A DNA stretch of 52,195 nucleotides from Macrostomum lignano (Eukaryota). Shown here piece by piece: positions 2,243-44,351 of this stretch. A program made the translations under genes and the position numbers. Below the pieces are notes generated by a model. That model ran no database searches. It was given only the letters and a program-made list of their open reading frames with translations, and was not told the origin of the DNA. Position 1 is the stretch's first letter. Each line of letters begins with the position of its first letter. The stretch lies in contig NIVC01001766.1 in the NCBI GenBank assembly GCA_002269645.1, forward strand, positions 1-52,195. The letters are read 5' to 3'.

Positions 2243-3329
2243 CGCACTGACTGCACTGTTCAATGAGTTGTGTCTTCAGATACAAAAACAATCCGACAAT
2301 TTTTTTATTCCAAGCAACGTCCTTATCGATCGACGACAAAGTGGTCGAGAGGTAAAAACGTTCCGGTAAGTATTAGGTAAGGAAGAAGCAAAATTTTGTA
2401 GAGAGTGAAGTGAAAAATAGGAGCGGGCTCCGTTTGAATTGTATTAGATCCAGTTTACAACGTAAATGTAAAACAAAGTTTTATTGCACCACAACAGTTT
2501 ATATAATAATACTCTTGATAAGTATATTTATCGAAAAATTCAAAACAGAATATTTAGCTAGTCTTGTTTAAAGTTTATAAAATTTGAGAATACTTTTTTA
2601 AAAAACCTTTTCAAACTGCCGTGATGAGGAGGCACATCCGCCCGGCCTGTCCACCAGCAGAGCCCATGATGTGCGCGAAAAGGTATGTTAATGCGAAAGT
2701 GATTTATCAATGCATTTCACGATTCGTGGAGTATGAGACTGCATGAATACATGCCAAAGGTCGCGACTTTTTATATACTATGATGGGTAAAAACAGAAAG
2801 TTCTCGCTTTTTTATATAAAACCTTGAAATGAAGTACAGCTTATTTGAAGATATATTTGGTACCGTGGCGTAGAATTCGGGTTGCTCTACATCAGTCAAT
2901 GGCCTTTTTATAACTGCACACGAGGCTTTCAGAAATTCGTAGTCTTTTATCCTCATAAACGTTAAACTGCGAGAACTTTTTGTTTTACCCAACTACATGT
3001 ACGTACTTTTTAGTACATGTATGCAACTATGTAACTGTAGTTGCAAGTAGCGCTAGCTAGATAAATCTACATAGACATAGACATTTATATATTTATATAT
3101 GTATACATATGCATGTCTATACTCGTACATGGTATATAGACCACAAGTAGAGGACCAGCTTTATACATGTACATGTAATTCGTCCATGCATGATTTGGTA
3201 CGTGTACTTGCATTAATTTACTATTCACAGTCAATGCTACAGTACAGTTACATGTTGATGTGTAATGCATCATATGTTTGGATCCGGGTACCAATATCAC
3301 TCAAGGACAACTCAGGACGGTTACACTCG

Positions 3330-14800: not shown

Positions 14801-15787
14801 ACCTAGGCTGACCCGTTCAGGTCGTCCAAACTGCTTATAGTTGACTAGTAGCTCTCTAGAGTATGTCATGTGGCAGGACGCTCCAGAGTCAATTATCCAG
14901 GTGGATATGTCAGAGCTGGTCTTCGCGGGCGACACAAAGAATGTCTCGTTGCAGCTACTTTTAGGTCCGTAGTCATCAAGCGAGGTTTCAGCGATGTCCC
15001 GGGTCGCGGCACCATCGGCTGTTTTGGCGACATACCGTGCAGGTCCTTGGTCCTTGACGAACTTTTTCGCTCCTCCTGAACGACAGTCTCGGGCAAAGTG
15101 ACCCATCTTTCCGCAATTAAAACATTTGATAGCACGACGTGGCAGACCTTGGCCTTTTTGGGTCTTCAGTGCAGACTCTCCACCCTGTGTACCACCAGAC
15201 CCTCGCTCACTTAATTCACTCCGCTTTTGCTCCTCGTTGATGAGTGCTTGGTGAACCATCTGCAGTGTAAGATCATCACCGCGAGCTTCCAAGGCAGTAA
15301 CCAAGGTAGAGTAGCTCTCAGGCAGGCTGCTGAGCAGCATGACCACTTGGTCCTCTTCACTGACGGGTGCGTTGATAGAGGCTAGTTTGTCGGTCAGCTC
15401 CTTCATATGGCGTATATGATCCTGTACGCGGGTCCCTTCACTCATCTGCAGCCGGAAAAGCTGTTTCTTCAAATAGATCTTATTCGCAGTTGATTCTCGT
15501 TCGAAGTGCTGTTGGAGAGCTTGCCACATACGATGTGGATCTTCGCCACACGAAGTTATTAGATAGATTAACTCTTTCTTGATTGAAAGAACGATCACTG
15601 CAGCAGCTCTCTGTTGCTGCTCTCGAAAATCGTTTTCTTGCTCCTGAGTGGCATCCTCTGCGAGAATTACAGAACCGTCGACGACTCCCCAGAGCTTCCT
15701 CGCTATAAGACAGAACTTGATCTGGATCTTCCAGGTAGTCCAGTTTCCGCTTCCCAGCTTGTCGACTTGAAACTTATCATCCGCCAT
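11828..15787 (-). CDS. copia Gag-Pol polyprotein, 1319 aa (Gag zinc knuckle, protease, integrase, RT, RNase H)
   Basis: CFNCGKMGHFARDC knuckle, WIIDSGASCHM protease, HQRLGH..CEGC plus DDE integrase placed before RT (QMDVVTAFLNG, YVDDL), RNase H (YSDADW, DNQG, ADALTK): copia domain order. Confidence 0.98.
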   Translation of the reverse strand: MADDKFQVDKLGSGNWTTWKIQIKFCLIARKLWGVVDGSVILAEDATQEQENDFREQQQRAAAVIVLSIKKELIYLITSCGEDPHRMWQALQQHFERESTANKIYLKKQLFRLQMSEGTRVQDHIRHMKELTDKLASINAPVSEEDQVVMLLSSLPESYSTLVTALEARGDDLTLQMVHQALINEEQKRSELSERGSGGTQGGESALKTQKGQGLPRRAIKCFNCGKMGHFARDCRSGGAKKFVKDQGPARYVAKTADGAATRDIAETSLDDYGPKSSCNETFFVSPAKTSSDISTWIIDSGASCHMTYSRELLVNYKQFGRPERVSLGDGRTVEACGSGQVKLIMLLPHDKRFKTAVTDVLLVPQLSCNLFSVRAAAAKDKVIQFGHSKCWIRNKDGLLVGKGSVVNRMYQLDCEVKLPANTAAVANADSPDTSATLWHQRLGHVNEHQLNQMSKDQLVSGIPKLQTACVDFCEGCIEGKMHCKPHRSISEIRSTERLQLIHSDICGPMQTESFGGNKYFVTFIDDYSRCVKVFFMRQRSEVLDKFKKFEAMVTTETGLNIKALRTDGGGEYASSQFTKFLEQKGIRHETTVAHTPQQNGVAERMNRTLVESARTMMAHAGVSNQFWAEAVNTAAYVRNRVVTTALTPQMTPYQRWYGRKPNAGHFRVFGCVAYAHIPDVKRKKLDKKAEKLRFVGYNTDGRSYRLFDERLRKTVIRYDVVFNETDFGTSKNRARDKDASWFNLELDEPNMTEETPGQEQEQSTETDQKRYPQRERRAPDRLKYEGAKVASETEHFAFRMTEIVEPKTIDEALKGDYAKQWKAAADSEYNSLMENETWDLVRLPEGRKAIGCKWIFKVKYDGDGKVDRFKGRLVAKGYSQKFGIDYEETFAPVVKFPSVRAMLALAAKHGLHVHQMDVVTAFLNGELCEEIYMEQPPGFVKPGEEELVCKLKKSLYGLKQAPRCWNKAFCDYLARINFEESSADSCVFIRKREDLTALAVYVDDLILITKSLVEMQQIKDELSKRFKMKDMGELHYCLGVNIQANKEDRCIKLNQKQYITKLLERYGLAEANPALTPMDPNVKLAKYDEGSKPVDSTVYQSMVGSLLYAATATRPDISYAVGVVSKFNNKPREIHLTAVKRIFRYLKGTIDFGLEYNSSVENLIGYSDADWASDVDDRHSTSGIVFKLSGGAISWLSKKQSTVSLSTTEAEYVALSSAAQEAMWLRRLLSDLERSGSERPTVIYEDNQGTIALSENSAGSRRTKHIDIRHHFIREAVSNGTIRVVYCPTGDMVADALTKPLPKDKFMQLRTMLGVVKM

Positions 15788-16248: not shown

Positions 16249-17598
16249 TCAACCCCAACGAAAAGCACTCTCCGGTATGATGACGCACCAGTAGACAACG
16301 TTGAACAGCGCAAACGCTGTCGGATAGGAGAAAAGAAAGATCAAATCCAGCTTTGCTGGTGTCAGGCGCCAAGTGTTTTTGCACATCATTCGTCTTCGCA
16401 CCCTCATGAGCACAGGTATCGCAGCCGCCGATCCGTTGTCTTCCACGCCTGCTGCTGCTGCTGCGGAAGTTGTCGGCCCAAGGAACTTGGTCTCAGCTTC
16501 TTTGTCTGATCTTCTCTGATCTGTACGCTCATCGACAACAGCCCGCGGTGGTCGACGCTCTTGCCGACGCTTCAACAAATTGATAACCATGTACTCCAAT
16601 AAGGACAGATGAATGAAAGCAATGCAACAAATGTGCCAGATGCCAAGAGCAGTTATGTAGGAGACTGGCGGCAGTTTCCTCTCCATGGCAACGGTCTCGG
16701 TGAGCAGAGCCAGCAGGCTGAGTATCGACAGCGACACTCGGGCTGGCGCGGCGTTGTAATCAATTGCAAATGACGACCAGGTGATCAGAACGATAAATAT
16801 AGACGGCAGGTAATCGTTGATTAGATAAGACGACTGACGACGCTTCAAAGTGAAATCGGCGTGCAAGTAGCTGAAATTCCGGCCCGTGAGCAGGGAGAAG
16901 CTGGTGCCGGTGCTGTAGTTGCACAGCGGCGGATAGTACTGGTTGAGAAACGTGGCGATCTGGCTGAACATCACTTTGTCGACCGCGATGCCCGATGCGG
17001 TGTCCTCGCTAGCCCAGTGCAGCAGTAAATCGTCGTTGCTCATACCGAAGCTAGTCATCTTCATGGGGCACGTTTGCACGTCGAATGGAAAATCTTTTAG
17101 ATCCATTGGACAGTGCAGACGCAGCTGCAGCTTCTGGCTGAACAGCAGAGTGCCGTTCGGCTACAGCCACAGAAGGAAGTTGCTCGACGGCAAGTCGTGC
17201 CGCTGAATGCTTTTAGCGTTCTGAAAGAACACGTCGGGCCGCCAGACTCTTTCCAAGAGCTGACTCAGCACTATTCGATCGTTGTGACCTTGGAAGGCCA
17301 GCCGACTGTCAATCCATCGCAGGTGCAGAACGATCTCGGCCGAGAAGTCCATCCTCATCACGTTGATTGGCCCGAAGCTGTCGATATGGTAGCAGGCGTA
17401 GACGTCCGTAGCTCCGCCGTCGGATGGTACCGGACGAAAGTGTCGATCGTAGCGCTCGGGTTCGACCAAATCGTGCGTGAAAGATGTCATGCTTTGATTG
17501 GATTGTTTCACTAGTGAATGAGTCCGCTCACTGCCGACCGTTATTCCTAGCAAGAGGGTTGCCAAAGCAACCATGTTCCCGAAGGTGTTTTGGCGCAT
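16249..17598 (-). CDS. Intronless Cys-loop ligand-gated anion channel subunit (GABA-A/glycine/GluCl superfamily) with one in-frame TAG at 17161-17163
   Basis: ORFs 17161-17622 and 16249-17106 are in the same frame: ...[37 protein letters not shown]. Signal peptide, YDRHFRP, VWRPDVFF, Cys loop, four TM helices and the anion-selective PAR motif before M2 are present. The start ATG could be 17598 or 17574. Confidence 0.92.
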
Positions 17599-25193: not shown

Positions 25194-25824
25194 ATGAATG
25201 CCCAGTCAACTAGCTTTGACCCACTGTCTGTCTCAGCTGACAGTGGCGCTTACCTTCTTGAAAGTGTTCTCAGCAGTCTTGACTGCTCAGCTGACTCGGC
25301 CAATAGCTCTGGCTTTTTTGATGGTGCTAGTAGCATCTCATCGCTAGAAGACCTAGCTGCCAAGGATGCTCTGCAGCATCAGCTTCAGCAGCTTCAGATT
25401 CAACAGCAGCAGCAGCCACAACAAGTTCAAGTTAAAAGCCAGCCAGCGGCATCAACTTTTGACAGTGACAATGTTTGGCAACTGTTTTCCAATTGTGCCA
25501 CGTCTAGTCCAATGAAGCCGCATCAAGTTTCTAAGCAGGCGTCGTGGCCGCCAACAAGTGACTGGTGCTCGCAGCAGCAGCAGCACAAGCAGCAGCCGCA
25601 GTATCAGCAGCGCCAAGCTGGCCAGCACCAGATTCGGCAGCCGATCATTGCCCAACGCCAGCTAAGCGCCGATCCCTGGGCCCTTGGCGACCCGTTGCAG
25701 AGTCTGCGCAGCTGCCTAGGCGATGTTATGGCCACGGGCGGAATTACGCCGTCTAGCGGAGCTGGGCGCGAGTTGTACAGCCGCAAAGTCTTTGTTGGCG
25801 GCCTGCCGCCGGATGTTGACGAAG
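25194..25824 (+). CDS. CPEB: CPEB2-4/Orb2-type cytoplasmic polyadenylation element-binding protein, exon 1 (S/Q-rich region and RRM1 start)
   Basis: ...YSRKVFVGGLPPDVDE then G|GTGAG donor (phase 1). Four exons total 1404 nt (467 aa) in frame. An upstream non-coding exon is not excluded. Confidence 0.9.
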
Positions 25825-28070
25825 GTGAGCTGTTTTGGCAATGAATTGTTCTCAAATTCGGCTTGTTATCGAAATCGTATAACCCATCACGACCCTCTAG
25901 CTGTAGCTTAGGTCTATTATATTTCTGTTTGCAGACCCTAAAATATGTATTCAGTCATTTGCAACTAAGATTATTATTATTACGGTATGATTCATCATCA
26001 GGCCCAGATATCGAATATAAGTCACTATGATTCCATGCTAGACTTTATTCCAACAAGCTTAGATAACCCCGGACGCGGAACCCTTGCTATTAGTTTAAAC
26101 TATATAAGTCAAGTGACTTTATTTATTGCTAACTGATGGCTGAATGTTTATTAAAGCAGTTTATTTTTAGTACAAGTCATCATTCATCCTGCTACTACTT
26201 TTAAAACGTATAGAGTATATTATAGTAGAGTATAGTAATTTTAAGTTCAACGATTTCATAGATAACCGGGCGCCCTCAGCTGATTTAAAATTAGCCGGCC
26301 ACCACATCCGCTTCTCAAAGCGCCCCACATTTATGAGTGAGCAAATGAATCAACCTTTACCCCTACCCTAATCCCTCCCTGCCGTGTCGGATTACAATAA
26401 ATAAAGCACAGGACAGCAGTAAATTTATTTGACGGGGCTGTACTTAAGTTTGAACCCAGGGAGAGAGGGTCATGGGGGTCAGTTGACCCCCCCCCCCGGG
26501 AAATTTCCTAGGCCCGTCCGTGTTTAGCTTCTGCCTCTTATTGTATTAAAGCTGTTGCTGTTAATGATTCACGGGGCCTCCCACGCGCACATGTGTTACT
26601 CAGCTTTTATAACTCTTCTTCGCTTGAGTGCTTGTCTGCGCTGTATTAGTCCTGTCTTATACGTGTAGTGCCGTGTGCGTGCTCAGGCACCGCCGCGACT
26701 AAAGCTGAAAGCTAAAGGCAATAACAAACAGCTGTTACGCGTCTTTCTATATCATAATTGTAATACCTAATTAATATAAGCATATCGGTAGAATATAGCC
26801 GACTATATTGAGTCTAATTGTATGATTGTGCGAATTTAGGAGTAGCTTGAATTGGAGAATGGAGGCCTCTCTTGTTGGTTTTTGGTTCTCTGTTTCTCTC
26901 TCTCTCTCTCGTCTCGTGCCACCGCCTGTTTGAGACTCCCCCCAGTGCCCCAGTGTCCCCGCTGTTGGCCCCCATCTGCGCCGCAACCCGGCCCCAGAAA
27001 TCTAAACTTAACTACTAAGAAGAGTTAGTTAAACCTGGCGCACAACACATACGCCACATGCGCAGGCAGCTAGAAGGTTTAGAACTGGAAAGAAAGAATG
27101 ACTCATTCATGCACGCACCTACGCGTGCGCCAACACTTTACTGTATATGTTACTATATGGTACTATTTATAACTATGTTTATTGCATGTATATATATAGG
27201 CTACGTGGAAAGGAAGTACTGGGCTTGGGATGTTAGCTGAGGGGTTTGTATTGTATCGGATCTAACTAAAGCATTCTGAACTGCGCTTCCCTATGGGCCC
27301 CCGTGACCGGGGTCTGGCGTGCTTGTGCACGCTAGAAATTGTGCTAAACTGTGTTTTTCTCCCCGTTTCTCTTTCTTCCCCTCTTCCCCCGTCCCGCACT
27401 GTGCTGAGTCAGGAGAAGGGGTCACGCGAGGTTTCTTCCCAGTTCTCCCCTCGTTCCCCCTTCTCGTCGTCTACCCTTTGGTCCTGGCTGGAACGCGTGG
27501 GCACGCGAACAAAAAAAGCGATGAGTAATGCTGCAGAGAGGGCAGAGAGGGATGAGGATCGGGGCTTTTGCCCCGGCGGTGACTCACTGTTTTCGTCTTT
27601 CTCTCGTCTCTCTCCCCCCTCTGCTTCTAGCTGTCCGTCTGGCCCTAATCTCCTTTCTCCGTACCCCTGCCCCCGAAGCCTCTCCACTAACTAGGCTTTG
27701 CCTCCTCGGGTTTTGCCCCAGCCAGCTCAGGTCAGGCTGGGGTCACGCCGAGGATAGGCATCGGCCTGGCTGCCTTATTTTTAGGCCTAAGAGCGACGCG
27801 AGGGAACGGGCGGTGCTACAGCTGGCCGCTGCCGAACCCTGGGAAGAGCGGACAGGGAGAGAAAAAGATGACTCGACTGAGGCGTCTCCTCCGCAGCCCC
27901 TACCCTGTCTCCTCAGTTTCTGGGGTCATGTCCCCTGGCCTTGGCTGCCTCTGCTTTTCTCAGGTTTCAGTTTAGCGGAAACTAGGCGTTTTTTTACAAA
28001 TCCTATAAATCAACTTTTCTAATCGTCATATTAATTAATAAATCATTACCCCTTCCTTTTTAACTTTCAG

Positions 28071-28160
28071 AGGAAATTGCCTGCGCGTTTCGTCGTTTCG
28101 GCAGCCTGACAGTCGATTGGCCGCACAAACAGGAGAGCCAAGCCTATTTTCCTCCGAAAG
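28071..28160 (+). CDS. CPEB: CPEB exon 2 (RRM1)
   Basis: TTTCAG acceptor; EEIACAFRRFGSLTVDWPHKQESQAYFPPKG; GTAAAT donor; 90 nt. Confidence 0.95.
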
Positions 28161-28283
28161 GTAAATTGAAATATTGAATTATCTTTACCTGTTCGAGTGT
28201 TTGGGTCCATCGGGCTGGCCCTCGGGTCCTTTGAAACTTTACCACAGAAATCCGGCCTGCTCAAGCTTTGTGTCTCTTCTCAG

Positions 28284-29105
28284 CTCCTCTCCTCTCCTCT
28301 CCCCTATTCTCTCCTGTCTTCTCTCTCCTCTCCCCTATTCTCTCCTGTCTTCTCTCCTCTCCCCTCTTCTCTCCTGTCTTCTCTCCTCTCCCCTATTCTC
28401 TCCTGTCTTCTCTCCTCTCCCCTATTCTCTCCTGTCTTCTCTCCTCTCCCCTATTCTCTCCTGTCTTCTCTCCTCTCCCCTATTCTCTCCTGTCTTCTCT
28501 CCTCTCCCCTATTCTCTCCTGTCTTCTCTCCTCTCCCCTATTCTCTCCTGTCTTCTCTCCTCTCCCCTATTCTCTCCTGTCTTCTCTCCTCTCCTCTCCT
28601 CTCCACTTCTCTCCCCTATTCTCTCCTGTCTTCTCTCCTCTCCCCTATTCTCTCCTGTCTTCTCTCCTCTCCCCTATTCTCTCCTGTCTTCTCTCCTCTC
28701 CCCTATTCTCTCCTGTCTTCTCTCCTCTCCCCTATTCTCTCCTGTCTTCTCTCCTCTCCCCTATTCTCTCCTGTCTTCTCTCCTCTCCCCTATTCTCTCC
28801 TGTCTTCTCTCCTCTCCCCTATTCTCTCCTGTCTTCTCTCCTCTCCCCTATTCTCTCCTGTCTTCTCTCCTCTCCCCTATTCTCTCCTGTCTTCTCTCCT
28901 CTCCTCTCCTCTCCACTTCTCTCCCCTATTCTCTCCTGTCTTCTCTCCACTCCTCTCCCCTCTCTTCTCTACTCTCCTCTCCTCTCCTCTCCTCTCCCCT
29001 CTCTTCTCTCTCCTCTCCCCTCTTCTCTCTCCTCTCCTCTCCTCTCCTCTCCTCTCCTCTCCTCTCCTCTCCTCTCCTCTCCTCCCCTCCGTCTCCTCTC
29101 CTCTC
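28284..29105. repeat. 29-bp pyrimidine-rich minisatellite (CTCTCCTCTCCCCTATTCTCTCCTGTCTT)n grading into (CTCCT)n
   Basis: About 22 units in CPEB intron 2; the overlapping L/S/P-rich ORFs are artefacts. Confidence 0.95.
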
Positions 29106-29410
29106 CTTTATTCCCTCGCCTCTTATTTCTCTCTTTTATATCTCTCCCCTGCCAAAAAGTTTTCCGATCCTTGTTCCTTAGTTTTGTTTTAGAGGACCCC
29201 GACCTCGGCTTTAATGCCGCCAACAACAACTTATCGAGTTTCTTTGGCCTTTGTTCATTTGCTTTTGTTTAAAAATCGGATCGCTTTTCAGTGTTAGTTT
29301 ACATCGGTGCGCCCAGGAAGTTTACTAATTAGTTCACAGTAACTTCCGTATTGAGCGAATGGTAACGCGGTATATGTAAATCAAATTCATTAACCCTCCG
29401 TGTCTCGCAG

Positions 29411-29529
29411 GCTACTGTTTTATTCTATTTCACGACGAGCCAAGCGTTCAACGACTAATGGACGTCTGCATTGCCGAGGGTGACAAATTCTACTGGTGCG
29501 TCTCGTCACCGACTGTCAAGGACAAGCCG
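29411..29529 (+). CDS. CPEB: CPEB exon 3
   Basis: TCGCAG acceptor; GYCFILFHDEPSVQRLMDVCIAEGDKFYWCVSSPTVKDKP; GTGAGT donor; 119 nt. Confidence 0.95.
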
Positions 29530-30219
29530 GTGAGTAATACGCTGCTCTGTTCTCTTCTTGTAACAGTAAATATTGACTGTGGTGGCAGTCTGCCAGATTT
29601 TCTGACTCATTTTTTTCATAATCATCCCCAATAGTCTACTGACCTCGATCAGCCTCCGTGATGCACTTTTCTCTATCTAATATTCCGTATCGTTTTTGAA
29701 GACCAACTAATTAATCATTTATAGGTTTTGTTTATTGCAAGGGGGAGATCCAGTGGTGGCTGGATCTAAAAGAGGGTCAACTACCCCCAATCCACCTCAG
29801 TAGCCAAATCATCCAGTACAAGGGGTCGGCTAACTCTATCGGCGAAGCCTCTCTATCCGGCTCTCGGGTCCTTTGCAACTTCACGATAGCAATGCGGCCT
29901 TCTTAAGGTTTTTTGTGTCTCTTCTCAGCTCTCTTCTCTCCTCTCTCCTCTCCTCTCATCTCCTTTCTTCTTTATTCCATTTTTAATTACTTTCTATGAT
30001 TCAATATTGAGTCCATTTTGTAAATATCTGTAAATAAGATACCACAATGGTCTACAATGGTAGGGATTTAGTCATGTACATGTTGAATTCTTATCTTTGT
30101 CCTACCACCATAAAATCCATGGCCCCTGGTACTAACCTCGACTATCTTCGCTTAACCTATAACGCTGTTTGCTAATAAAAGATTCTTACCAACACCCACC
30201 CAATCAACCACGCCCACAG

Positions 30220-30783
30220 GTGCAAGTCCGCCCCTGGCTACTGTCCGACTCCGACTTTGTGCTGGACTCTCGCCAACCTTTGGATCCGCGCAAAACTGTC
30301 TTTGTTGGCGGCGTGCCGCGCCCTCTGCGCGCGCGCGACCTGGCCGTAGCCATGGAGCGCCTATTCGGCGGCGTCTGCTACGCCGGCATCGACACCGACC
30401 CGGATCTGCGCTATCCCAAAGGTGCCGGTCGCGTCGCTTTCGCCAGCCAGCGCTCCTACGTGGCCGCGGTTAGCGCTCGATTTGTTCAACTGGCCGGCTT
30501 TGAAGCCGCTTGCGGAGCTACGCCTACTACTACTAATAGTAGTAGCAGCGGAAGTAGTACCAACAACGGCAACAAGCGCGTTGAAGTGAAGCCGTTCGTA
30601 CTGGACGATCAGTCATGCGACCGCTGCCATCTGCGCAGCGCTCCGCTGTTCTGCGCCAGCCCAGCCTGTCTGCGCTATTTCTGCGACCAGTGCTGGCCAG
30701 AGGCCCACGCCGGGCCAGGCGGTAGGCAGTACCACCGGCCTACGGTCCGGGACGCCGGGTCCAGGATGACCTTCCTAGGCTAA
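30220..30783 (+). CDS. CPEB: CPEB exon 4 (RRM2 and ZZ-type zinc finger)
   Basis: VQVRPWLLSDSDF, PRKTVFVGGVPRPLRA, YPKGAGRVAF, CDRC...C...C..YFCDQCW..AH...H. AATAAA at 30796. Confidence 0.96.
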   Translation: MQVRPWLLSDSDFVLDSRQPLDPRKTVFVGGVPRPLRARDLAVAMERLFGGVCYAGIDTDPDLRYPKGAGRVAFASQRSYVAAVSARFVQLAGFEAACGATPTTTNSSSSGSSTNNGNKRVEVKPFVLDDQSCDRCHLRSAPLFCASPACLRYFCDQCWPEAHAGPGGRQYHRPTVRDAGSRMTFLG

Positions 30784-35293: not shown

Positions 35294-35685
35294 TCAAAGT
35301 TCGACAGCAACAAACAAGCGCCCAGCTAGCAGAGCGGCCAGAATGAGGCCGACAGTGCTCAAAGCGCTTGGCGCCAAGCCGGCAGCCCCGGCCGAGAATG
35401 TCCGGTAGAGCGTCCTCGGCGTGCCTGGCCGGTTGCCCGGGTTCAGCGGCAGCGGTGGCCGGAAGTTGTTCACCATGCTACTGTTGTCGGAGTAGTGCAG
35501 GCGGCGTAGCATCTGCAGCTGTCTGGCGCTGATGGGTACAGCCTGGCGGTACACTGTCCACAGCACCGACTCGTAGCAGACTGGAGTCGTCAGGCTGCCG
35601 TCATAGCGGAAGAACTCGTCCTGGTTGCTCGGCAGGAATGTGCTGAACATGTTGAAATCGGTCCTGGCTGCTACCTCAGCGGCAC
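35294..35685 (-). CDS. Alpha-carbonic anhydrase exon 3 (active-site Thr loop, GPI-type hydrophobic tail)
   Basis: AAACAG acceptor; FFRYDGSLTTPVCYESVLWTV, QLQMLR, NNFRP, hydrophobic C-terminus. Three exons total 996 nt (331 aa). Confidence 0.95.
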
Positions 35686-35723
35686 CTGTTTAAGGGCGGA
35701 TGGAATAATGTGAAATATTCTTG

Positions 35724-36230
35724 TTTTTATTAGAGGCAGGGGGCTGTCAACAGCACATTCCTGCCAAATTGCTGCCTATTCCGCCGAATACCTTGAGTCA
35801 TACGCACAGGCACACACTCACACAGGAGTGTACAGCAGCCCTAACTTTATTTATCGTTAGGCATGTACACCTCACTGTGCCTTGGGGGTTGGCCCTCAAG
35901 GGCCCCCACAAGCCGAGAATCCAATTTAGCTTCAATAGATTACACCTGCCCTAATTGGGACAGATGTGCAACCGACAGCTCAGCCGCAGCTATTGCGCGG
36001 CGCATCTGAAGGCTGAGTACGGCTGTTCAGTCCGCTGACTGGGGGGTCGCCACACACCCTCAATTACCCCAGCTAATGCTGGCACCCATTTTACAGCTGG
36101 GTGGACTGAAGCAATGCAGAGTTAAGTTCTTGCTCAAGAACACACATTATTGTTCCAGTGGGACCGGGAATCGAACCCACGACCTTCAAGTCGTAAGTCC
36201 GACGCTCTAAGCCACTAGGCTACGCCTCCC
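35724..36230 (-). mobile_element. tRNA-derived SINE A (tRNA-like head, CORE-like centre, shared 3' tail)
   Basis: Head GCGTAGCCTAGTGG...GGTTCGATTCCCGG (A and B boxes, 36160-36225), then TGTGTTCTTGAGCAAGAACTTAAC...CCACCCAGCTGTAAAATGGGT; tail ends CTCTAATAAAAA. Confidence 0.75.
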
Positions 36231-36520
36231 TTACATGTATGTCTGTACAGTTGCTAATTAAACTAATCGAATATCATATCATTTTCTGAGGTCTGTGGGC
36301 AAACTGCATGCTTCAACGCCTTCGGAGACCTCCTCCTCCCACAACCAGCAGCGCTGGGGCAATTCTGCCCATTCCACTGACTCCATGTCCTTGTCCATGT
36401 CCATGATAAATCATAAAAAGCAATTCACCAAAAGTTTTTAATAATTTGCACGCATTCTAATGCATACAGTCGGCACCAAAAACTCGGAGAAAAGTCTATT
36501 TCCTAGAAGCAATTATTATT

Positions 36521-36875
36521 TTTTTATTAGAGGCAGGGGGGTTGTGTGCACCCTGGCGCACTTTAAGCGACATAGGCACACAACCGGCGAGAGGCATTAC
36601 TGCCCATTCCGCCGACTTCCCTGAGCAGGCATACAAGCGCGCGGATACGTACGCAGGCACACACTCACACAGGAGTGTACAGCGGCCCTAACTTTATTTT
36701 ATCGTTAGGCATGTACACTTCACTGCGCCTTGGGGGTTTGGCTCTCAAGGCCGTTAATTGCACGAGCAGAGCCAAGCCGAGATTCCAATTCAGCCCAAAT
36801 TAATGTGACTGCACTTGGAATCGAGCCTGGGTCGCTGGCACACCAGACAGCAGCGCTACCGCTGGGCTACGCCCC
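36521..36875 (-). mobile_element. tRNA-derived SINE B (different head, same 3' tail as SINE A)
   Basis: A box TAGCCCAGCGG and B box GGCTCGATTCC (36817-36827); about 230-bp tail closely similar to 35724-35945. Confidence 0.7.
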
Positions 36876-37101
36876 CCCCCCCCTACGCAATTAACTGCTT
36901 TCCTGTCCCCTATTCGCTTGGTCAGGAAATTGAAGAAGTTTGCGAATTTTCTTTGTTGCTTTCTGTATGCCTCACTTAGCAGAGGAATGTTAGCCTGCCG
37001 TTGATGGCTGGGAAACAAAGTCCGCTTCTAACTTCTTTTTTGGCACCAAGGAAATGCTTTGAGTCTTCGCGCTTTTTCTATGCCCATGCTTGTCCTATGC
37101 T

Positions 37102-38043
37102 GCAGATTGACATTCCCCAACCCTATCCTATGGTGCAGATAGACATTCCCCAACCCTATCCTATGGCACAGATAGACATTCCCCAACCCTATCCTATGGT
37201 ACAGATAGACATTCCCCAACCCTATCCTATGGCACAGATAGACATTCCCCAACCCTACCCTATGGCACAGATAGACATTCCCCAACCCTATCCTATGGTA
37301 CAGATAGACATTCCCCAACCCTATCCTATGGCACAGATAGACATTCCCCAACCCTACCCTATGGCACAGATAGACATTCCCCAACCCTATCCTATGGCAC
37401 AGATAGACATTCCCCAACCCTACCCTATGGCACAGATAGACATTCCCCAACCCTATCCTATGGCACAGATAGACATTCCCCAACCCTATCCTATGGCACA
37501 GATAGACATTCCCCAACCCTACCCTATGGCACAGATAGACATTCCCCAACCCTATCCTATGGTACAGATAGACATTCCCCAACCCTATCCTATGGCACAG
37601 ATAGACATTCCCCAACCCTACCCTATGGCACAGATAGACATTCCCCAACCCTATCCTATGGCACAGATAGACATTCCCCAACCCTACCCTATGGCACAGA
37701 TAGACATTCCCCAACCCTATCCTATGGCACAGATAGACATTCCCCAACCCTACCCTATGGCACAGATAGACATTCCCCAACCCTACCCTATGGCACAGAT
37801 AGACATTCCCCAACCCTATCCTATGGCACAGATAGACATTCCCCAACCCTACCCTATGGCACAGATAGACATTCCCCAACCCTATCCTATGGCACAGATA
37901 GACATTCCCCAACCCTACCTATGGCACAGATAGACATTCCCCAACCCTACCCTATGGCACAGATAGACATTCCCCAACCCTATCCTATGGCACAGATAGA
38001 CATTCCCCAACCCTACCCTATGGCACAGATAGACATTCCCCAA
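37102..38043. repeat. 33-bp minisatellite (CAGATAGACATTCCCCAACCCTATCCTATGGCA)n, about 28 copies
   Basis: In carbonic anhydrase intron 2; 11-aa periodic ORFs reflect the 33-bp unit. Confidence 0.97.
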
Positions 38044-38060
38044 ATGACACGCAGACTCAC

Positions 38061-38412
38061 CGCCCATATTAATCAGCGTGTCATTTGCCAGAGCCTTTTC
38101 AAGGTCTTTAAACAGAGGATTATCGGTGGCCGACACTTCGTAGAAAACGCCCAGCACCGCCAGGCCATTGGGCCGACTGGCTGCCATGCTGATATTGGCA
38201 TAATCTTTGGAATTGTAGAACACCAGGTGACCTTCGGCTGCGTAAGATTTCTTATCCAAGGTGTGCTCGGAACCCTGCTGATCAGAGCTGCCCCAGTGCC
38301 AGTGCAGCTGAGCAGCTGTGTACATCTGGTCCGCGGCAGTCTGGCCCATTGTGATTGATAGCTCGGGCGACCAGTTCAATTCGATTTTGTGACCGTCGTT
38401 TTTCAGCGTGAA
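38061..38412 (-). CDS. Alpha-carbonic anhydrase exon 2 (zinc ligands)
   Basis: CCAG acceptor; FTLKNDGHKIEL, QLHWHWG, GSEH, EGHLVFY, GLAVLGVF; G|GTGAGT donor. All three Zn-binding His present. Confidence 0.96.
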
Positions 38413-38443
38413 CTGGAGTTGATATTGAATTATAGATTTAATA

Positions 38444-39118
38444 GAAAATAGGAGAGGAGAGGGGAGAGAAGAGGGGGAGGAGAGGGGGAGAGAAGAGGGG
38501 GAGAGAAGAGGAGGAGAGAAGAGGGGGAGAAGAGAGGGAGAGGGGGAGAAGAGAGGGAGAGGGGGAGAAGAGGGGAGAGAAGAGGAGGAGAGAAGAGGGG
38601 GAGAAGAGAGGGAGAGGGGGAGAAGAGAGGGAGAGGGGGAGAAGAGAGGGGGAGAAGAAGGGAAGAAGAGGGGAAGAAGAGGGGGAGAAGAGAGGGAGAG
38701 GGGAAGAGAGGGAGAGGGGGAGAAGAGGGGAGAAGAGAGGGAGAAGGGGAGAAGAGGGGGAGAAGAGGGGGGAGAAGAGGGGGAGAAGAGAGGGAGAGAA
38801 GAGGGGGAGAAAAGAAGGAAACAATAGGGGAAGAACGGGGAGAGAAGAGGGGGAGAGAAGAGGGGAGAAGAGAGGGAGAGGGGAGAAGATAGGGAGAAGA
38901 GAGGGAGAAGAAGGGGAGAAGAGGGGGAGAAGAAGGGGAGAAGAGAGGGAGAAGAGGGGAGAAGAGGGGAAGATAAGAGAAGGAGATAAGAGGGGGAGAA
39001 GAAATAGAAAAGGGGGGAGAAAATGGGGAGAAGAGAAGAGAGAAGAGGGGAAGAAGAGAAGAGGGGGGAAGAGAGGAGAGAAGAGGGGTAGAAGAGGGAG
39101 AGAAGAGAGGGAGAATAG
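38444..39118. repeat. Low-complexity G/A (polypurine) tract
   Basis: About 670 bp almost entirely G and A; fills most of carbonic anhydrase intron 1. Confidence 0.95.
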
Positions 39119-39183
39119 ATTATGCATGCATAAATACATAATCAATAGATCGGCCCAGCCCCCAGTATCCCGCTCCGCTCCAC

Positions 39184-39435
39184 CTTAACGCCAGCCGCAA
39201 TGGATGACTGGTGGAACACGTATTTCCTAATCAGCGAGCTCTGCAGCGCAGTCTGCGTGCTCAAATCGATGGGGCTCTGTTTGTCTCCGGCGCAGAATTC
39301 CGGAAACAACTCGGCCCATCGGTTCGGTCCGTTCTTGCCGTAATCCCAGCCGCCAGCCGCCAAACTCGCTTGCAGTTGGGCAGCAACCAACAGCGACAGC
39401 ATGGTGACCCAGGATTTGCTTCCAGCAGATGCCAT
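39184..39435 (-). CDS. Alpha-carbonic anhydrase exon 1 (signal peptide)
   Basis: MASAGSKSWVTMLSLLVAAQLQASLAAGGWDY...GPNRW...CAGDKQSPIDL; AAG|GTGGAG donor, phase 0 matches exon 2. Confidence 0.92.
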
Positions 39436-40287
39436 TGTCTGCAAATAAGTGAGACAGACTACTGGATGAATATTATAAATCAACAGAAAAACCACAAGTG
39501 ACTTCATTAACAACAACAGTCACCCACAGCGCGCAGGAGCTGCGTGTAAGGGTTAAAAAAATCTAGTACGAAGCGACCTGCTTTATTGTGTTCACCATTA
39601 CTTGGTAAGTATTTTTCTAGAGTTTTTAAAAAATCTGCCGATGTCAAGCTCCACAATCAGTAAATTATTTAATTAGCATTAATTGCATGGCGAAAGGGGT
39701 CTAAACAAGTCATGATTTTTATCCAAGGACCATTGATATTTTAAGCTAGGGTCGTTGCACTATTACATGCATGTTATGTATAGTGTATTATATAATTTTT
39801 GTGACAGTTTATTGTATAAATTCGTGTGCATAGCCTAGAATTGGAAACAATTTATAGTGTTAAATAAATAGAAAGTAAGTTACACATAGTAATAGAAAAG
39901 TATAACTAAAAAACAGTAAGAAATACAGATAGGCGACAAATTTATGTCTTTTCAAATTGTAGAAAATAATTTTAGTTCTTGGTGTAGCCACAGTTGGAGT
40001 AAAGCCGAGAGAAAATTTGTGGCAGAATGTCCATAGACTTTCGTGCCATGAGAGTCTAAAACACTGCATGACATGAGAAGCCTTGCTGTGAAGTTTCAGG
40101 GGTTGATTTGTCTATGACCAGACCTCAAAATAGAGAGCTCCAACTGTAACCTCACCAAAAATTAAACAAAAAACCTGAATTTGTCCCCCATTTGTCAAAA
40201 CAAGAATTCTGGTGCACCAATCGGTTTTAAAGTAACTCGGATATTATTGCACCTTCAACAGAACTGCTTACAGCACAGTAGCCCATT

Positions 40288-41979
40288 TTACAGATGCCGC
40301 GAGCTGTACACCGTGATGCACCTGAGCAAACGCCGAGCATACTCCGGATGAGTTGCATCCACCTTGAAGCGTTGACTCCACATGTCGCTGAAGTCGCGAT
40401 GTGCCGACTCCATCGCCTGCTCAGACCAAAACCCAAGGCCTCGGCGACACCCATATTGTACTGCCATCGCTTCCAAAAACTGCGGCACGTGGTCAATGAG
40501 GGCATGGGCCTTCGGAGTGATGTTGATGGCCAGAGCGTGGTATGCCGCCTCGAACTCTTTGACTGCTGTATCGTAGCCTTCAAGCAGTTGTTGGCCGAAG
40601 CACTTCTGCTGGACAGCTCGCAGGCAGCTGAATGCATGGGCGACAGGCACTCCGCTGAAGGCAGCGTGGTCAGCGAGGATCTGGCGCAGGCTGTCGACTC
40701 CACCAAGCAGTCGGTCGCACTCATTGCCATTGAACTGGCTGCCATGATACGGTGAGCGCCGTACGTGAAGAGCCTCAGCCCACTGTGCAGCACGGACTCC
40801 GTCGGGACCCAATGCTGTCAGGCGCTGCTCAAGCTCGTCGTACAGCCTGTTGACAAGGCCTAGCAGCAGGTGGAGCTCCATGGGTGGCACGGCTTCTAGC
40901 GTGTTTGAACTGTCTGGCCAATTCAGCAGTGGTTGCCTGATGCAGTTGTGGAATGGCTCTCCTGATGGCTTTGAGCTTCGTTGCCCCTCGATGCGCTGAT
41001 ACTGGGCAGCTTGGCTGCGAATAGAGCCAAAAGTCCGCAATCTGACACTGCGATGGGGATTGGCGAACTCTTTTCGAGGCGTCTCGCACCACGGGCAGGG
41101 ATGGGCGCTGCTGGCGCTCTGCAGTCCAAGAAGCACATTTGCAAGTTTCATGTCCACGGAGCTGCAGAAAGACACGTCTTCTAGGTTCAGCAGATTTAGC
41201 ACAGTTTGCACGTTCTCATAGTACTCCGGTACTTTTTCAACTGCTGCGATAATTAATAGCTTCTTTACACCACCTTCGGCAAAAGGGCTGCTGCCGGCCT
41301 CGGTGACACCGCCTAGTAGAACAGATGACTGCTCCCCGGACCGGACCAATGTCATGCAAACTTTAAAAAAGCCGCGTCCTCCATCAATACCAATCTTAAG
41401 TAGGAAGCTGCCAGGATCAGGATCCATTCTCCGCCGTGCCAGCACGTAGCCCACCAAGCCAGAGACGTTGGAGCAGAACACAACAGTCCGCGTTTCAAAT
41501 TCGCCCGTGCTGCAACGGACTTGGACTGACTCTGTTGCATAAAATGGATCCAACTCGCTATTCAATTCTGCCAGGCGATGCAGGAGGTTTGGCTCGATCG
41601 AACTGCGACCCTTCCACTCACGGAAGAACTGGGCCGCCTGTCTGGTTTGCCGACCACTCAAACCGATCGCATCCTGCATCCTGGCAATCTCACTAGCCGG
41701 CACTGATATGTCACCACCCGCGGAGCACCTGCTACTCTGAGCGGACACGCTTAGCGTGATTGGGCGGCCTCGAGTTGCCAGCCGAATAGGCGAATCGCCA
41801 CCTGCGTCTGTTAACTTGGCTTTGAGGACGTCACTAGCATGAATTTCTGAACCACGCGGATCACGTGACAGCTCAGAGCAGATGTTATTTAGCCAGCGAG
41901 ATTGCGTACAGGTGTGGCTAAGACCCCTGCCAATGGTGGAGTGACATCTCTGGCAGATGGTGATGGGACGAGCAGGTGG
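40288..41979 (-). CDS. Transib/Chapaev-related (RAG1-like) DDE transposase, 5'-truncated
   Basis: Frame open from 41979 (PPARPITICQRCHSTIGRGLSHTC...LATRGRP) through GIDGG, VDMKLANVLLGLQSASSAHPCPWCE, ELHLLLG, FNGN, TPKAH..IDH, SEQAMESAH. No ATG before the viral terminus. Element ends not identified. Confidence 0.8.
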   Translation of the reverse strand, partial: PPARPITICQRCHSTIGRGLSHTCTQSRWLNNICSELSRDPRGSEIHASDVLKAKLTDAGGDSPIRLATRGRPITLSVSAQSSRCSAGGDISVPASEIARMQDAIGLSGRQTRQAAQFFREWKGRSSIEPNLLHRLAELNSELDPFYATESVQVRCSTGEFETRTVVFCSNVSGLVGYVLARRRMDPDPGSFLLKIGIDGGRGFFKVCMTLVRSGEQSSVLLGGVTEAGSSPFAEGGVKKLLIIAAVEKVPEYYENVQTVLNLLNLEDVSFCSSVDMKLANVLLGLQSASSAHPCPWCETPRKEFANPHRSVRLRTFGSIRSQAAQYQRIEGQRSSKPSGEPFHNCIRQPLLNWPDSSNTLEAVPPMELHLLLGLVNRLYDELEQRLTALGPDGVRAAQWAEALHVRRSPYHGSQFNGNECDRLLGGVDSLRQILADHAAFSGVPVAHAFSCLRAVQQKCFGQQLLEGYDTAVKEFEAAYHALAINITPKAHALIDHVPQFLEAMAVQYGCRRGLGFWSEQAMESAHRDFSDMWSQRFKVDATHPEYARRLLRCITVYSSRHL

Positions 41980-42303
41980 CAGTAGTATATAAAAAGACGC
42001 TTCTAGACCCAGAGCACTTTTTTAATGACCGTTTTAAGGGTCTAGAGGGGGGACACGGGGGGTAAATAAAAAAACACATCTAAACACCATTAATACATCT
42101 AATCACCCATAATCACCCCTAACAATAAAAATCATTCCCAACACTTCCAAACACTCCCCAACACCCCCTCGCGTCCCCCCTCTTAAGACCTTAAAAACGG
42201 CCATTAAAATAAGGTCTGATCTGTAAGCGTCTTTTTCTATACTACTACTCTATAACCCCTTGCCCGCGCCGCAGGCGCGAAGGGTCTTTTTCTGTTACTA
42301 AAA

Positions 42304-42618
42304 ATGACCCGAGTTTACACCTTTTCTGTTAGTGATACTTTTGAGACTGTTGCTAAAAATGCAGAGATAATAAAACAACATATTTTGAATGGAATAATTG
42401 ATGAAGTTTATTTAAAATATGACGACAAGCATGACCTAAAGCTTTATCCATTAGAGCTAGATGAGATGTATGATTTAGAACAAGAGGGTGAGTTAATATT
42501 TCAACTTGGAGATTATTTAAATTCGGATGATTGGGAGGTTAGATCAACAGATTCCGAATCAACAAATAGTTCATATGAAACCAGTGATTCAGAGAATGAA
42601 AGTGAAATTTTTATGTGA
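42304..42618 (+). CDS. Viral hypothetical acidic protein, 104 aa
   Basis: AAAAATG start context shared with other viral genes; no recognisable domain. Confidence 0.6.
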   Translation: MTRVYTFSVSDTFETVAKNAEIIKQHILNGIIDEVYLKYDDKHDLKLYPLELDEMYDLEQEGELIFQLGDYLNSDDWEVRSTDSESTNSSYETSDSENESEIFM

Positions 42619-42634
42619 AAAAAATATTTAAAAA

Positions 42635-42859
42635 ATGAACTATTATTCTATAACAGAAACGACGTTTATTATGAAAAATATATATAAAAAAATGAAGGTA
42701 AATTATTCCTACATCGGAAATGTTCCAATTAATGAACTTAATGAAAATTTAAGTTTGATAACAGTTGAACAAATGTCAATAATAATATTAGTAACAATAA
42801 TAGTAATAATATTGTTTTTGTTTGTAATAAAAAATTTACTACCATGTTGTCTTAAGTAA
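42635..42859 (+). CDS. Viral small membrane protein, 74 aa
   Basis: Hydrophobic helix IIILVTIIVIILFLFVI followed by KNLLPCCLK; AAAAAATG context. The true start may be a later Met. Confidence 0.55.
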   Translation: MNYYSITETTFIMKNIYKKMKVNYSYIGNVPINELNENLSLITVEQMSIIILVTIIVIILFLFVIKNLLPCCLK

Positions 42860-42869
42860 CTGTTTGAAC

Positions 42870-44018
42870 TTAGTTCGCAGACATTATCTGGTTCTCATAA
42901 AAAGAACCCAATATTTCTTCACCATCCTTATCAGCAATTATATAGGTTGTAGGATTTGTATTTAAAACTTTACTGATGGTAAATTTCTCACTTATTTTCC
43001 AATATCCTTTTCTTCCCTTTTCAAACTTATCTTTCCATTTATAGATATAAACAGAATCACCAACCTTAAAACCTTTAGTTTTCTTTTTTTCAAAATCTCC
43101 AAAAGTAACCCTAACATTTTCAGGATTGTTATAAGCTTGTTGAGGAGTCATCTTTATCGCCGAATGATATGAATTGTTATAATCTTTCACTACGTCTGGT
43201 AATATTTTTACCCATTTTTGGTTACCATTAAGACTAAACTGAAACCATAATTTCTTACCTAAAGTTCTATTAAATCTTTCTATTAATGCGTTTTTACTCT
43301 CTCCATAAATAGAATAAATTTTATTAATATACTCCCCATTCGCGTCCTTTTTCCTTTCTTGTCCTTTTTCAAAATGATACAATTTATACATGTGAGGATT
43401 GTAAAATTCTTTTCCTTCGTCAACACACAACCTTTCACTTTTTTCTCCAAGACTTCTAAAAGCAGCAGCAACCTCCTCTCCCTTTTTGGATTTTAAAGGA
43501 ACAGCCCACGCGTATCGAGTAAAACCATCTAATATGGTTAAGATATATTTATATCCTCTTTCGTTCGGCATCGACATTAAATCAGCATACCAAATTTCAT
43601 TCTTTTTGAAGTTCATGATTTTTCTATAAAATTTAGGTTTTCGATATTCTTTATGAAGAATCTTTGCCTCATCAGAACTTAACCCGCCGCCACTTAACAA
43701 CAAACACTCAACACAATTATTTCCATGTTGATTATAATTAATTCCCAAACCAAATTTAACTTTAGACTGCAAGATCTTTTTAACCATCCACCTAGTTAAT
43801 TTTTGACCTACCGATAATCCCTGCAAGTTATCTAATCCTTGAATCATTTTTTGATCGGCTTCATGTTTTAATCTTAATGCTTCCTCGGGTGTGTTCTTAT
43901 CAGCATCTCTGTATGCTAAGTCATGATAGTATGCTAACCAATCAATTCCATTTATGGGAATTGAATCGGCTTTTGGGGTGTCATCAGGATTTAATCTCAA
44001 ATCTAAGCGAGTGCCGGG
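42870..44018 (-). CDS. PLA2-integrase fusion protein, exon 2 (PLA2 catalytic region and rve DDE integrase)
   Basis: PGTRL...DWLAYYHDLAY (parvovirus-type PLA2 HD motif), then WYADL, LCVDEGKEF, IERFNRTL, YNNSYHSAIKMTP, FKVGDSV: Polinton-type integrase. Confidence 0.92.
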   Translation of the reverse strand, partial: PGTRLDLRLNPDDTPKADSIPINGIDWLAYYHDLAYRDADKNTPEEALRLKHEADQKMIQGLDNLQGLSVGQKLTRWMVKKILQSKVKFGLGINYNQHGNNCVECLLLSGGGLSSDEAKILHKEYRKPKFYRKIMNFKKNEIWYADLMSMPNERGYKYILTILDGFTRYAWAVPLKSKKGEEVAAAFRSLGEKSERLCVDEGKEFYNPHMYKLYHFEKGQERKKDANGEYINKIYSIYGESKNALIERFNRTLGKKLWFQFSLNGNQKWVKILPDVVKDYNNSYHSAIKMTPQQAYNNPENVRVTFGDFEKKKTKGFKVGDSVYIYKWKDKFEKGRKGYWKISEKFTISKVLNTNPTTYIIADKDGEEILGSFYENQIMSAN

Positions 44019-44351
44019 TAGTTTACCCTCAATCTTTCGAAAGAGGCTGGAGCACACCTTAAGCGGCGATAATTACCGCCCATCTCCGTCTGCTCTCTGA
44101 ACCTTCTCCTTATATTTAAAATACTTAGGAGCTTGGCTGCGCATTGCCACCGTGTCTTCAAGCTTTTTACCATCGAACCATAGGTTCGCGGACGAAGTCC
44201 GATTGGGAAGAGGAGTTACCTCTGTTCCTTCAAAAGATTTCTCAATTGAAGTGGTACTTGAAGCTGTATGACGGGTTTCACGCAATTTGGAGATGTCGCC
44301 ACAAATAGTGACTAGCAAGGACATTGCCTTCCTCACTCAGGCCACGGGTTA
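44019..44351 (-). ncRNA. Group I intron, subgroup IC1-like, 333 nt, no internal ORF
   Basis: P AAAUUGCGUGAAA (44276-44288), Q AAUGCGCAGCCAAG (44132-44145), R GGUUCAGAGAGCA (44091-44103), S UUAAGGUGUGCUCC (44049-44062). P3 CAUCUCC/GGAGAUG, P7 GAGCA/UGCUC, P1 with U.G wobble and P5abc all pair by hand. Removal restores NFTG|PGTRL in frame. Confidence 0.9.

Follow-up and report, generated by a model that had tools for sequence, protein, structure and literature searches.

Known group I introns and intron nucleases in viruses and animals

Group I introns of metazoans have been described from the mitochondria of Cnidaria, Porifera and Placozoa (PMC8146996), and a 2013 review places nuclear group I introns only in the rRNA genes of microbial eukaryotes, together with His-Cys enzymes (PMC3679873). 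Both sources agree with the first-pass annotation of this DNA, which held that group I introns of animals are essentially known only from mitochondria of early-branching groups. The IC1 introns of nuclear rDNA share the P2.1 and P5abc core with the intron described here (PMC3679873).

Among viruses, group I introns matching RF00028 and measuring about 310 to 380 nt have been reported in a protein gene of protist Polinton-like viruses (PLVs), with endogenous copies (PMC12220804). They come from Paulinella, Desmodesmus and Rhodomonas, lie upstream of the capsid gene and have no nuclease assigned to them, whereas the locus studied here has an animal host, a PLA2-integrase gene, a partner nuclease and a site purge. 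Intron nucleases have been proposed as weapons in Bodo saltans virus (PMC5871332), and such a weapon has been shown in phage PhiPA3 (PMC12908238; see also PMC11620839). As in the arrangement proposed below, the intron there masks its own target and the nuclease harms intron-less rivals, but those are described as HNH or GIY-YIG homing enzymes acting at one locus, while here an enzyme like those with short sites is accompanied by site loss over the whole element. The chloroviruses, also DNA viruses of eukaryotes, have restriction enzymes with short sites as well as protein genes interrupted by self-splicing introns; each enzyme is described as paired with an adjacent methylase and the introns, of group IB, as unconnected (PMC7019647), whereas here no methylase ORF was seen and the intron covers the site. 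I-Ssp6803I, too, is a small nuclease of restriction fold whose gene lies in a group I intron, but it is cyanobacterial, has a 23-bp target and is described as PvuII/Hjc-like (PMC3384342); it is absent from the fold matches listed for our model, where EcoO109I comes first. Collaborative homing, for which PMC11296320 cites Bonocora and Shub (2009) and Zeng (2009), also pairs an ORF-less intron with a free-standing nuclease; unlike in the cases outlined there, a single genome here contains homologous nucleases in both positions, within the intron and next to it.

As far as their accessible text goes, papers on a coral polintovirus, a nematode Polinton, adintoviruses, an entomopoxvirus-PLV and mosaicism contain no such intron. 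The first-pass annotation knew of no description of the arrangement, and our literature search, with subscription papers and supplements outside its scope, returned neither a case from an animal nucleus nor an intron enzyme of restriction type that is linked to a genome-wide site purge. Group I introns in PLVs are already on record from protists (PMC12220804), and the ncRNA supplement of that paper could list animal elements.

An integrated Polinton in the Macrostomum lignano genome

The window, by which we mean the whole stretch of DNA analysed (52,195 nt), is one whole contig of the 764-Mb M. lignano assembly. It is composed of a host part and an element part:

11828-15787, 16249-17598, 25194-30783, 35294-39507 and 40288-41679, strand not given: host part, from ORFs and Pfam
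41981..52195, no strand: element part, 10,215 nt and 2,589 codons, free of GGNCC and of Gly-Pro
41981..42286, plus strand: left terminal inverted repeat, starting AGTAGT, host junction at 41980/41981, 97.7% to the far end of another copy
45696..47168, plus strand: probable major capsid protein, 490 aa, named from size and gene order
47252..48007, plus strand: A32-type packaging ATPase (Pfam Pox_A32, E 4.7e-7)

The element shows the features of a Polinton, with terminal inverted repeats starting AGT, a 6-bp duplication, an rve integrase, a packaging ATPase and, in another copy, a protein-primed PolB. The PolB-like ORFs, recognised by eye, belong to a sister copy's other half, and PF03175 matches lie about 10 to 11 kb from several intron loci. 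The 490-aa ORF has no Pfam capsid match. The terminal repeat pattern has 65 matches genome-wide and 0 in the control, and the target duplications are perfect in three of the four copies with both ends, the remaining copy being without matching ones. Host exons of CPEB, a Cys-loop channel and carbonic anhydrase lie on the same contig. Copies of the intron number at least 40 and are spread over many contigs, 40 out of 212 candidates having been scored, and the stretch itself occurs in 19 runs from seven studies, with one organism label throughout. The first-pass reading of a Polinton-like virus integrated in an animal nuclear genome is thereby upheld.

Several further observations concern the same contig. 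The terminal repeat in turn has the structure of an inverted repeat (41981-42246), and pairs of the end motif about 265 bp long on several contigs (e.g., G000:C21, C255, C2171, and C2840) look like solo ends or miniature elements. A fibre-like ORF of 532 aa (49429-51027) combines seven 19-aa repeats with an F5/8 type C domain. The host part contains an open copia-type retrotransposon ORF, exons for the Cys-loop channel, the CPEB gene, carbonic anhydrase together with a minisatellite of 33-nt units (37004-37933), and a 463-aa ORF adjoining the insertion.

The PLA2-integrase gene and its insertion site

The intron and its surrounding genes all lie on the minus strand:

44458..44961, minus strand: free-standing PD-(D/E)xK nuclease, 167 aa, overlapping the start of exon 1 (residues E49, D65, E76-x-K78)
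44352..44477, minus strand: PLA2-integrase exon 1, 42 codons from the ATG at 44477, ending NFTG at the initial Gly of the GPG loop in PLA2, from homologues
44019..44351, minus strand: group I intron, IC1-like (P2, P2.1, P5abc), in the ORF-less form of lineage A, from RF00028, helices, covariation and at least 40 copies
42870..44018, minus strand: PLA2-integrase exon 2, starting PGTRL, 382 open codons with the rest of the PLA2-like domain and the rve integrase, from Pfam

The insert of 333 nt has an in-frame TAA at its start and, as the first-pass annotation described, splits the PLA2-integrase between NFTG and PGTRL; exons and frame agree with this. Exon 2 matches rve (E 1.6e-7) and Phospholip_A2_4 (E 0.008). 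The uninterrupted homologues P0174 (71% to lineage A) and P0177 (75% to lineage B) continue across Gly-Pro, and the splice position is therefore fixed independently of the intron. The motif [FY]xGPG is found in 50 of 120 among the homologues listed. Alternative 3' splice sites ending in G slightly downstream were rejected, as they would disrupt either the reading frame or the GPG loop, which is conserved.

The comparison of copies with and without the intron, which had been proposed as a check, yields the intron-less form as the protein relatives P0174 and P0177; in this genome, a degenerate pattern covering lineage-A codons only found no intron-less allele. The PLA2 part is under purifying selection among the copies, with 17 synonymous to 5 nonsynonymous changes in those with an A at the intron end (omega-A) and 15 to 4 in those with a G (omega-G). 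The claim that integrase expression depends on splicing is uncertain: the intron splits the PLA2 loop, and an in-frame ATG at 43847, in an AAAA-ATG context as in the other viral ORFs, opens a 325-codon frame with the entire integrase core. This internal start could supply integrase in the absence of splicing.

The environmental PLA2-integrases P0181, P0184, P0198, P0207, P0176, and P0213 are called from PGT or just before it. These gene calls suggest further introns at the same site.

The insert is a group I intron

The following parts of the intron were located:

44338..44342, minus strand: internal guide sequence GCCUG, pairing with the final five bases of exon 1
44138..44284, minus strand: P4-P5abc scaffold, with the A-rich bulge at 44163-44172, a GAAA-capped P5b at 44228-44251 and P5c at 44209-44223
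44174..44203, minus strand: double hairpin of 30 nt, an optional insert that some copies of lineages A and B carry
44050..44095, minus strand: P7 (5' strand 44091-44095, 3' strand 44050-44054), with the P3 3' strand and P8 between
44019..44019, minus strand: terminal intron base, A in place of the canonical omega-G, its position set by the uninterrupted homologues

The local Rfam scan that the first-pass annotation had called for gave 61.1 bits for the insert with RF00028 (E 4.1e-15), above the gathering cut-off of 50. The intron has no match when the whole window is scanned at the gathering cut-off, and in a scan of 15 loci three short lineage-A copies also went undetected. In the window copy, pairing is full in P1, P2, P3 (7/7), P4, P5a, P5b, P5c, P6/P6a, P7 (GAGCA/UGCUC), P8, P9 and P9.0, the strands being assigned by hand and those of P2.1 located but placed outside the pairing score; the full core folded by hand in the first reading is thus recovered to that extent. 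P1 has the U.G pair at the 5' splice site, and P7 retains the guanosine-binding G-C pair. The minimum free energy has a z of -2.3 against 100 dinucleotide shuffles.

P7 occurs in four versions across four lineages (GAGCA/UGCUC, GACUU/AAGUC, GACUA/UAGUC and GACUG/CAGUC), each paired at 5/5, in agreement with the compensatory change and preserved G-C pair noted before. Covariation across the four lineages is also seen in P5a, P5b, P5c, P6, and P9.0. P2.1 and P5abc with its A-rich bulge are features of subgroup IC1. The P9.1/P9.2 extension of that subgroup is absent from the window intron, as only 8 nt remain after P9. On these grounds, the insert is a group I intron of IC1-like build. The earlier account has nothing on the omega-A end, nor on the nuclease that partners the intron, the related lineage B or the purge of GGNCC, and these last three are the more surprising parts.

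A 13-nt palindrome of the optional hairpin recurs in a hairpin that lies between genes (51449), and small hairpin modules of this sort are found as in-frame inserts in several copies.

The omega base and splicing

An omega-A has a precedent in Coxiella. Here, 45 lineage-A loci were inspected, chosen by similarity and end pattern and so not a random sample, and the intron ends in A in 25 and in G in 20. Lineage-B introns end in G wherever readable (27/27), as do those of the metagenome contig L086 and the IMG/VR contig L096. A genome-wide pattern count gave 71 matches ending in A, inspected in part and five of them with variant ends, and a backwards control gave 57, making that control uninformative; for G-ended introns, there were 27 matches with 7 by chance. 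All 25 inspected omega-A loci have a 5-bp perfect inverted repeat across the 3' splice site, formed by the omega-A and a linked exon change, which together resemble what one template-switch mutation could produce. P10, read from the sequence, pairs at four of five positions with the omega-A exon start.

None of the 19 runs holding the stretch is on record as RNA, and four of them, from four studies, are probable RNA. The contigs of these four contain no spliced exon joint, including the junction of the ACAGGT/CCCGGC type that had been put forward as a check, and splicing may be rare or conditional; one contig of run X1 continues unspliced over both splice sites. Such contigs neither show nor exclude splicing, because they drop rare forms and may be DNA. 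Two apparent transcript signals were discarded: a coverage drop above 44484, resembling a transcript start, is due to the swapped upstream cassette, and a contig beginning exactly at 44352 is due to a variant at 44382.

An omega-A is also present in the sea anemone ND5-717 mitochondrial intron, which is described as spliced (PMC8146996). Judged from their sequences, the G-ended copies probably self-splice, and the A-ended copies, including that of the window, probably splice poorly or need help. The A-ended copies may spread with the products of other copies.

A sister lineage and environmental relatives

The genome-wide RF00028 search gave 28 scored matches of 72.7 to 91 bits, which form lineage B. 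They are copies of the same intron in a sister lineage of Polintons, where they interrupt the identical codon boundary; they are 836 to 895 nt long and have a canonical P7. Their P2.1 loop carries a homologue of the window nuclease at 25 of the 28 loci, the other three having one unreadable end. This in-intron ORF matches the window ORF at 44458-44961 at 58 to 71% in its best segments and is open for 211 to 233 codons in 14 of the 23 loci with a start found.

In lineage A, the slot upstream of exon 1 holds either this nuclease (11/45 loci, all omega-A) or an HNH-like gene (34/45; 14 omega-A and 20 omega-G), and none of the 45 loci has both or neither. A copy of the alternative gene, 189 aa long, lies at L019:1940-2509, equal to about 44498-44946 of the window; its HNH label comes from a motif read by eye and from Atlas neighbours at 0.87 to 0.89, and it has no Pfam match. 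Lineage A would have lost the in-intron ORF, one upstream slot then taking up this nuclease or the HNH-like gene. The free-standing protein is nested among the intron-borne ones in the nuclease tree (support 88/84). Monophyly of the intron-borne nucleases is not rejected (AU p 0.11), and the nuclease may have moved either into or out of the intron.

Related introns were also found outside the genome. The metagenome contig L086 has the lineage-B layout, with 80.6 bits and a nuclease ORF inside the P2.1 loop, and the C-terminal tails of six of nine environmental nuclease homologues are translations of the same intron core. The closest IMG/VR relative, L096 (35%), an environmental Polinton-like virus, has an ORF-less intron at the same Gly/Pro. 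This group I-like intron of 302 nt, which Rfam leaves undetected in both modes, has a GIY-YIG-like ORF upstream (L096:3280-3581 and 2804-3145). Queries of IMG/VR using the nuclease, using the P9 motif and using the single integrase gave no matches.

The next relatives of the intron core are introns in giant-virus-like contigs, a plausible source pool of the Polinton intron by sequence relationship. Such contigs in IMG/VR (L134, L138/L140, L146/L147, L153/L154, and L155) contain as many as about nine matches to related introns of IC1-like type within 10 kb, apparently in a major capsid gene, the N-terminus of which was read by eye. Two related matches lie in a ubiquitin-like gene (L130 and L142).

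The partner nuclease resembles restriction enzymes of the GGNCC type

The window nuclease matches the Pfam family RE_Eco47II (PF09553) with E 3.8e-4 and 20.6 bits, under the cut-off of 25.9; of the six family members that hit it, the homologue P0003 is over the cut-off with 30.2 bits and the other five are under it. E49, D65, E76, and K78 are invariant in 10 sequences. In a comparison of the structure model (pLDDT 89) with 48,161 chains, the best match was EcoO109I, with a Z of 9.7 and an rmsd of 3.6 Å over 165 residues, the next row having 6.3. Foldseek matches under E 0.001 were DdmD, EcoO109I (E 2.7e-4), and AvaII. EcoO109I recognises RGGNCCY and AvaII GGWCC. The predicted structure assigns the window nuclease to the PD-(D/E)xK fold, in an Eco47II/EcoO109I-like form.

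At the sequence level, the nuclease profile has no PDB match. Similarity to a real Eco47II-family enzyme is limited to one motif, ELK..NT.NSSS (pairwise E 0.005), and the profile search does not pick up that enzyme. P0039, a distant member, is a natural fusion of a C5 DNA methylase to the nuclease family, the methylase having as its best plasmid match a pair of dcm and an Eco47II-family enzyme. Eco47II cuts GGNCC (PMC10305163). Specificity often changes within the PD-(D/E)xK restriction fold. No cognate methylase lies beside the nuclease, and none was recognised among the listed ORFs of two copies, both partial. The window nuclease lies outside the intron, so that the window copy is without an in-intron ORF.

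GGNCC is absent from the element

Exon 1 ends with Gly and exon 2 starts with Pro, so the uninterrupted gene must contain GGNCC; the intron thus sits on a Gly/Pro codon pair that is an Eco47II site. The absence of this sequence from the element was predicted before counting, and the element (41981-52195) has 0 GGNCC against 14.4 expected, which makes it the most depleted of 256 gapped 5-mers. The Gly-Pro dipeptide is missing from all 2,589 codons (5.3 expected). The host part of the window has 96 GGNCC against 103.9 expected. A Markov null expects 6.0 in the element (P 0.002), shuffling of synonymous codons with fixed proteins gives a P(0) of 0.032, and shuffling of codon order gave 0 of 2000. 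CCNGG is also low in the element, with 5 against 14.4.

The same loss is seen in other copies and relatives. In another copy, the half with the polymerase has 0 GGNCC against 9.4, and 69 of 79 intron-bearing loci are free of it, these being 77 stretches of about 3 kb and two shorter ones from overlapping homologues; where sites do occur, in the remaining 10, they are close to the ends of the locus or belong to broken copies. In both lineages, the viral DNA examined shows a complete purge. L096, with the intron at the same Gly/Pro, has 0 against 6.2, and nine IMG/VR relatives with an intact GPG loop, several of them close kin, have 85 against 76.3. Control sets of AT-rich viruses have GGNCC ratios of 0.68 and 0.80, with 4/30 and 2/30 loci without any, and some integrase relatives without a detected nuclease are also depleted (L104, L112-L114, L124, and L125). 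With a background ratio of 0.7 and a dinucleotide null, zero GGNCC in about 17 kb has a P of about 7e-7.

A proposed restriction-like system and competing explanations

This Polinton family carries, at the Gly/Pro of the PLA2 loop, an intron akin to those of giant-virus protein genes, and we propose that its small nuclease, drawn from a GGNCC-type restriction fold, would cut GGNCC or a short extension of it. Because every Gly-Pro codon pair spells GGNCC with any wobble base, the conserved GPG loop of intron-less relatives would be an unavoidable target. The element would have purged all dispensable GGNCC, and the last one, required by the protein, would be masked by an intron that is removed only from RNA. 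An intron-less relative, once cut, would be destroyed, as in competition, or converted by repair, as in homing, and the intron would serve as the immunity half of a restriction-like system in which no methylase is seen. An enzyme that cuts at 5 bp would be toxic in the host nucleus if it were not kept under tight control; expression limited to virus production, as for the chlorovirus enzymes that degrade host DNA (PMC7019647), is one possibility for how it could be tolerated. We consider it fairly likely that GGNCC, or a site that extends it slightly, is what the nuclease reads, and that the element escapes by purge and intron. The more specific proposal, in which a methylase-free restriction system of an animal-integrated virus cuts GGNCC in rival DNA while the intron works as a self-splicing mask, is tentative and falls somewhat short of an even chance.

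The locus might instead harbour an ordinary mobile intron, with a homing endonuclease reading a long site at PLA2 only and a GGNCC deficit with another cause, such as composition or the restriction enzymes of a giant virus or another ancestral host. Long sites are typical of the homing enzymes known, I-Ssp6803I with its PD-(D/E)xK fold among them (PMC3384342), the host-toxicity problem would be avoided, some viral loci without this nuclease are depleted as well, and L096 has another nuclease type. This account seems rather unlikely to us, as it needs a coincidence, in which a single 5-mer out of 256 is fully purged and happens to be the site of the nearest named family of the nuclease as well as the sequence that the intron splits, and as the purge is complete in the examined viral DNA of both lineages but absent in relatives with an intact GPG loop. 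L096, which combines intron and purge with a GIY-YIG-like gene, implies that the selecting enzyme could be someone else's. The intron would then mask the site against a GGNCC cutter of a competing virus or a former host, with the resident nucleases being interchangeable selfish passengers. Nucleases of PD-(D/E)xK, HNH-like, and GIY-YIG-like types are indeed found beside or in the same intron site, most inspected lineage-A loci (34/45) are without the PD-(D/E)xK nuclease, and the purge holds in copies with the HNH-like gene. However, the in-intron nuclease belongs to just that family for which reading of GGNCC is expected, and copies recombine, so one nuclease in the population would select on all of them, which leaves an outside cutter improbable.

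Two further explanations concern the window copy itself. Its intron could be a dead relic, unspliced because of the omega-A, with PLA2 lost and integrase supplied from the internal ATG or by other copies, and we take this as a serious possibility that stays below probable. The omega-A itself, the X1 contig unspliced over both splice sites, the AAAA-ATG at 43847, and an inverted repeat at the 3' splice site that would fit one template-switch mutation are all consistent with it, while the core helices intact across copies, the splicing described for the omega-A intron of ND5-717 (PMC8146996), and the P10 pairing with the omega-A exon start (4/5) argue for function. A relic would concern the omega-A copies alone and is compatible with the GGNCC explanation for the family. 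An assembly chimera or a protist or algal contaminant could be suspected from the nearest intron relatives, which are in environmental and giant-virus contigs, and from the one full-length copy of four without matching target duplications, but it is hardly credible given at least 40 lineage-A copies and 28 lineage-B matches on many contigs, some of hundreds of kilobases, the perfect 6-bp duplications of the other three copies, and the 19 runs of seven studies under one organism label.

Significance

The default Rfam search missed the introns of the window and of L096, so more such introns may be hidden in animal assemblies. A multicopy protein-gene intron in an animal nucleus makes ribozyme function in animal nuclei directly testable, with natural omega-G and omega-A forms side by side. 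One genome holds both stages of the association between intron and nuclease, inside and outside. The match between nuclease family, site, and purge gives a specific prediction of the cut site and suggests a self/non-self system with an intron in place of the methylase. If true, a group I ribozyme would be operating on a nuclear-encoded animal mRNA.
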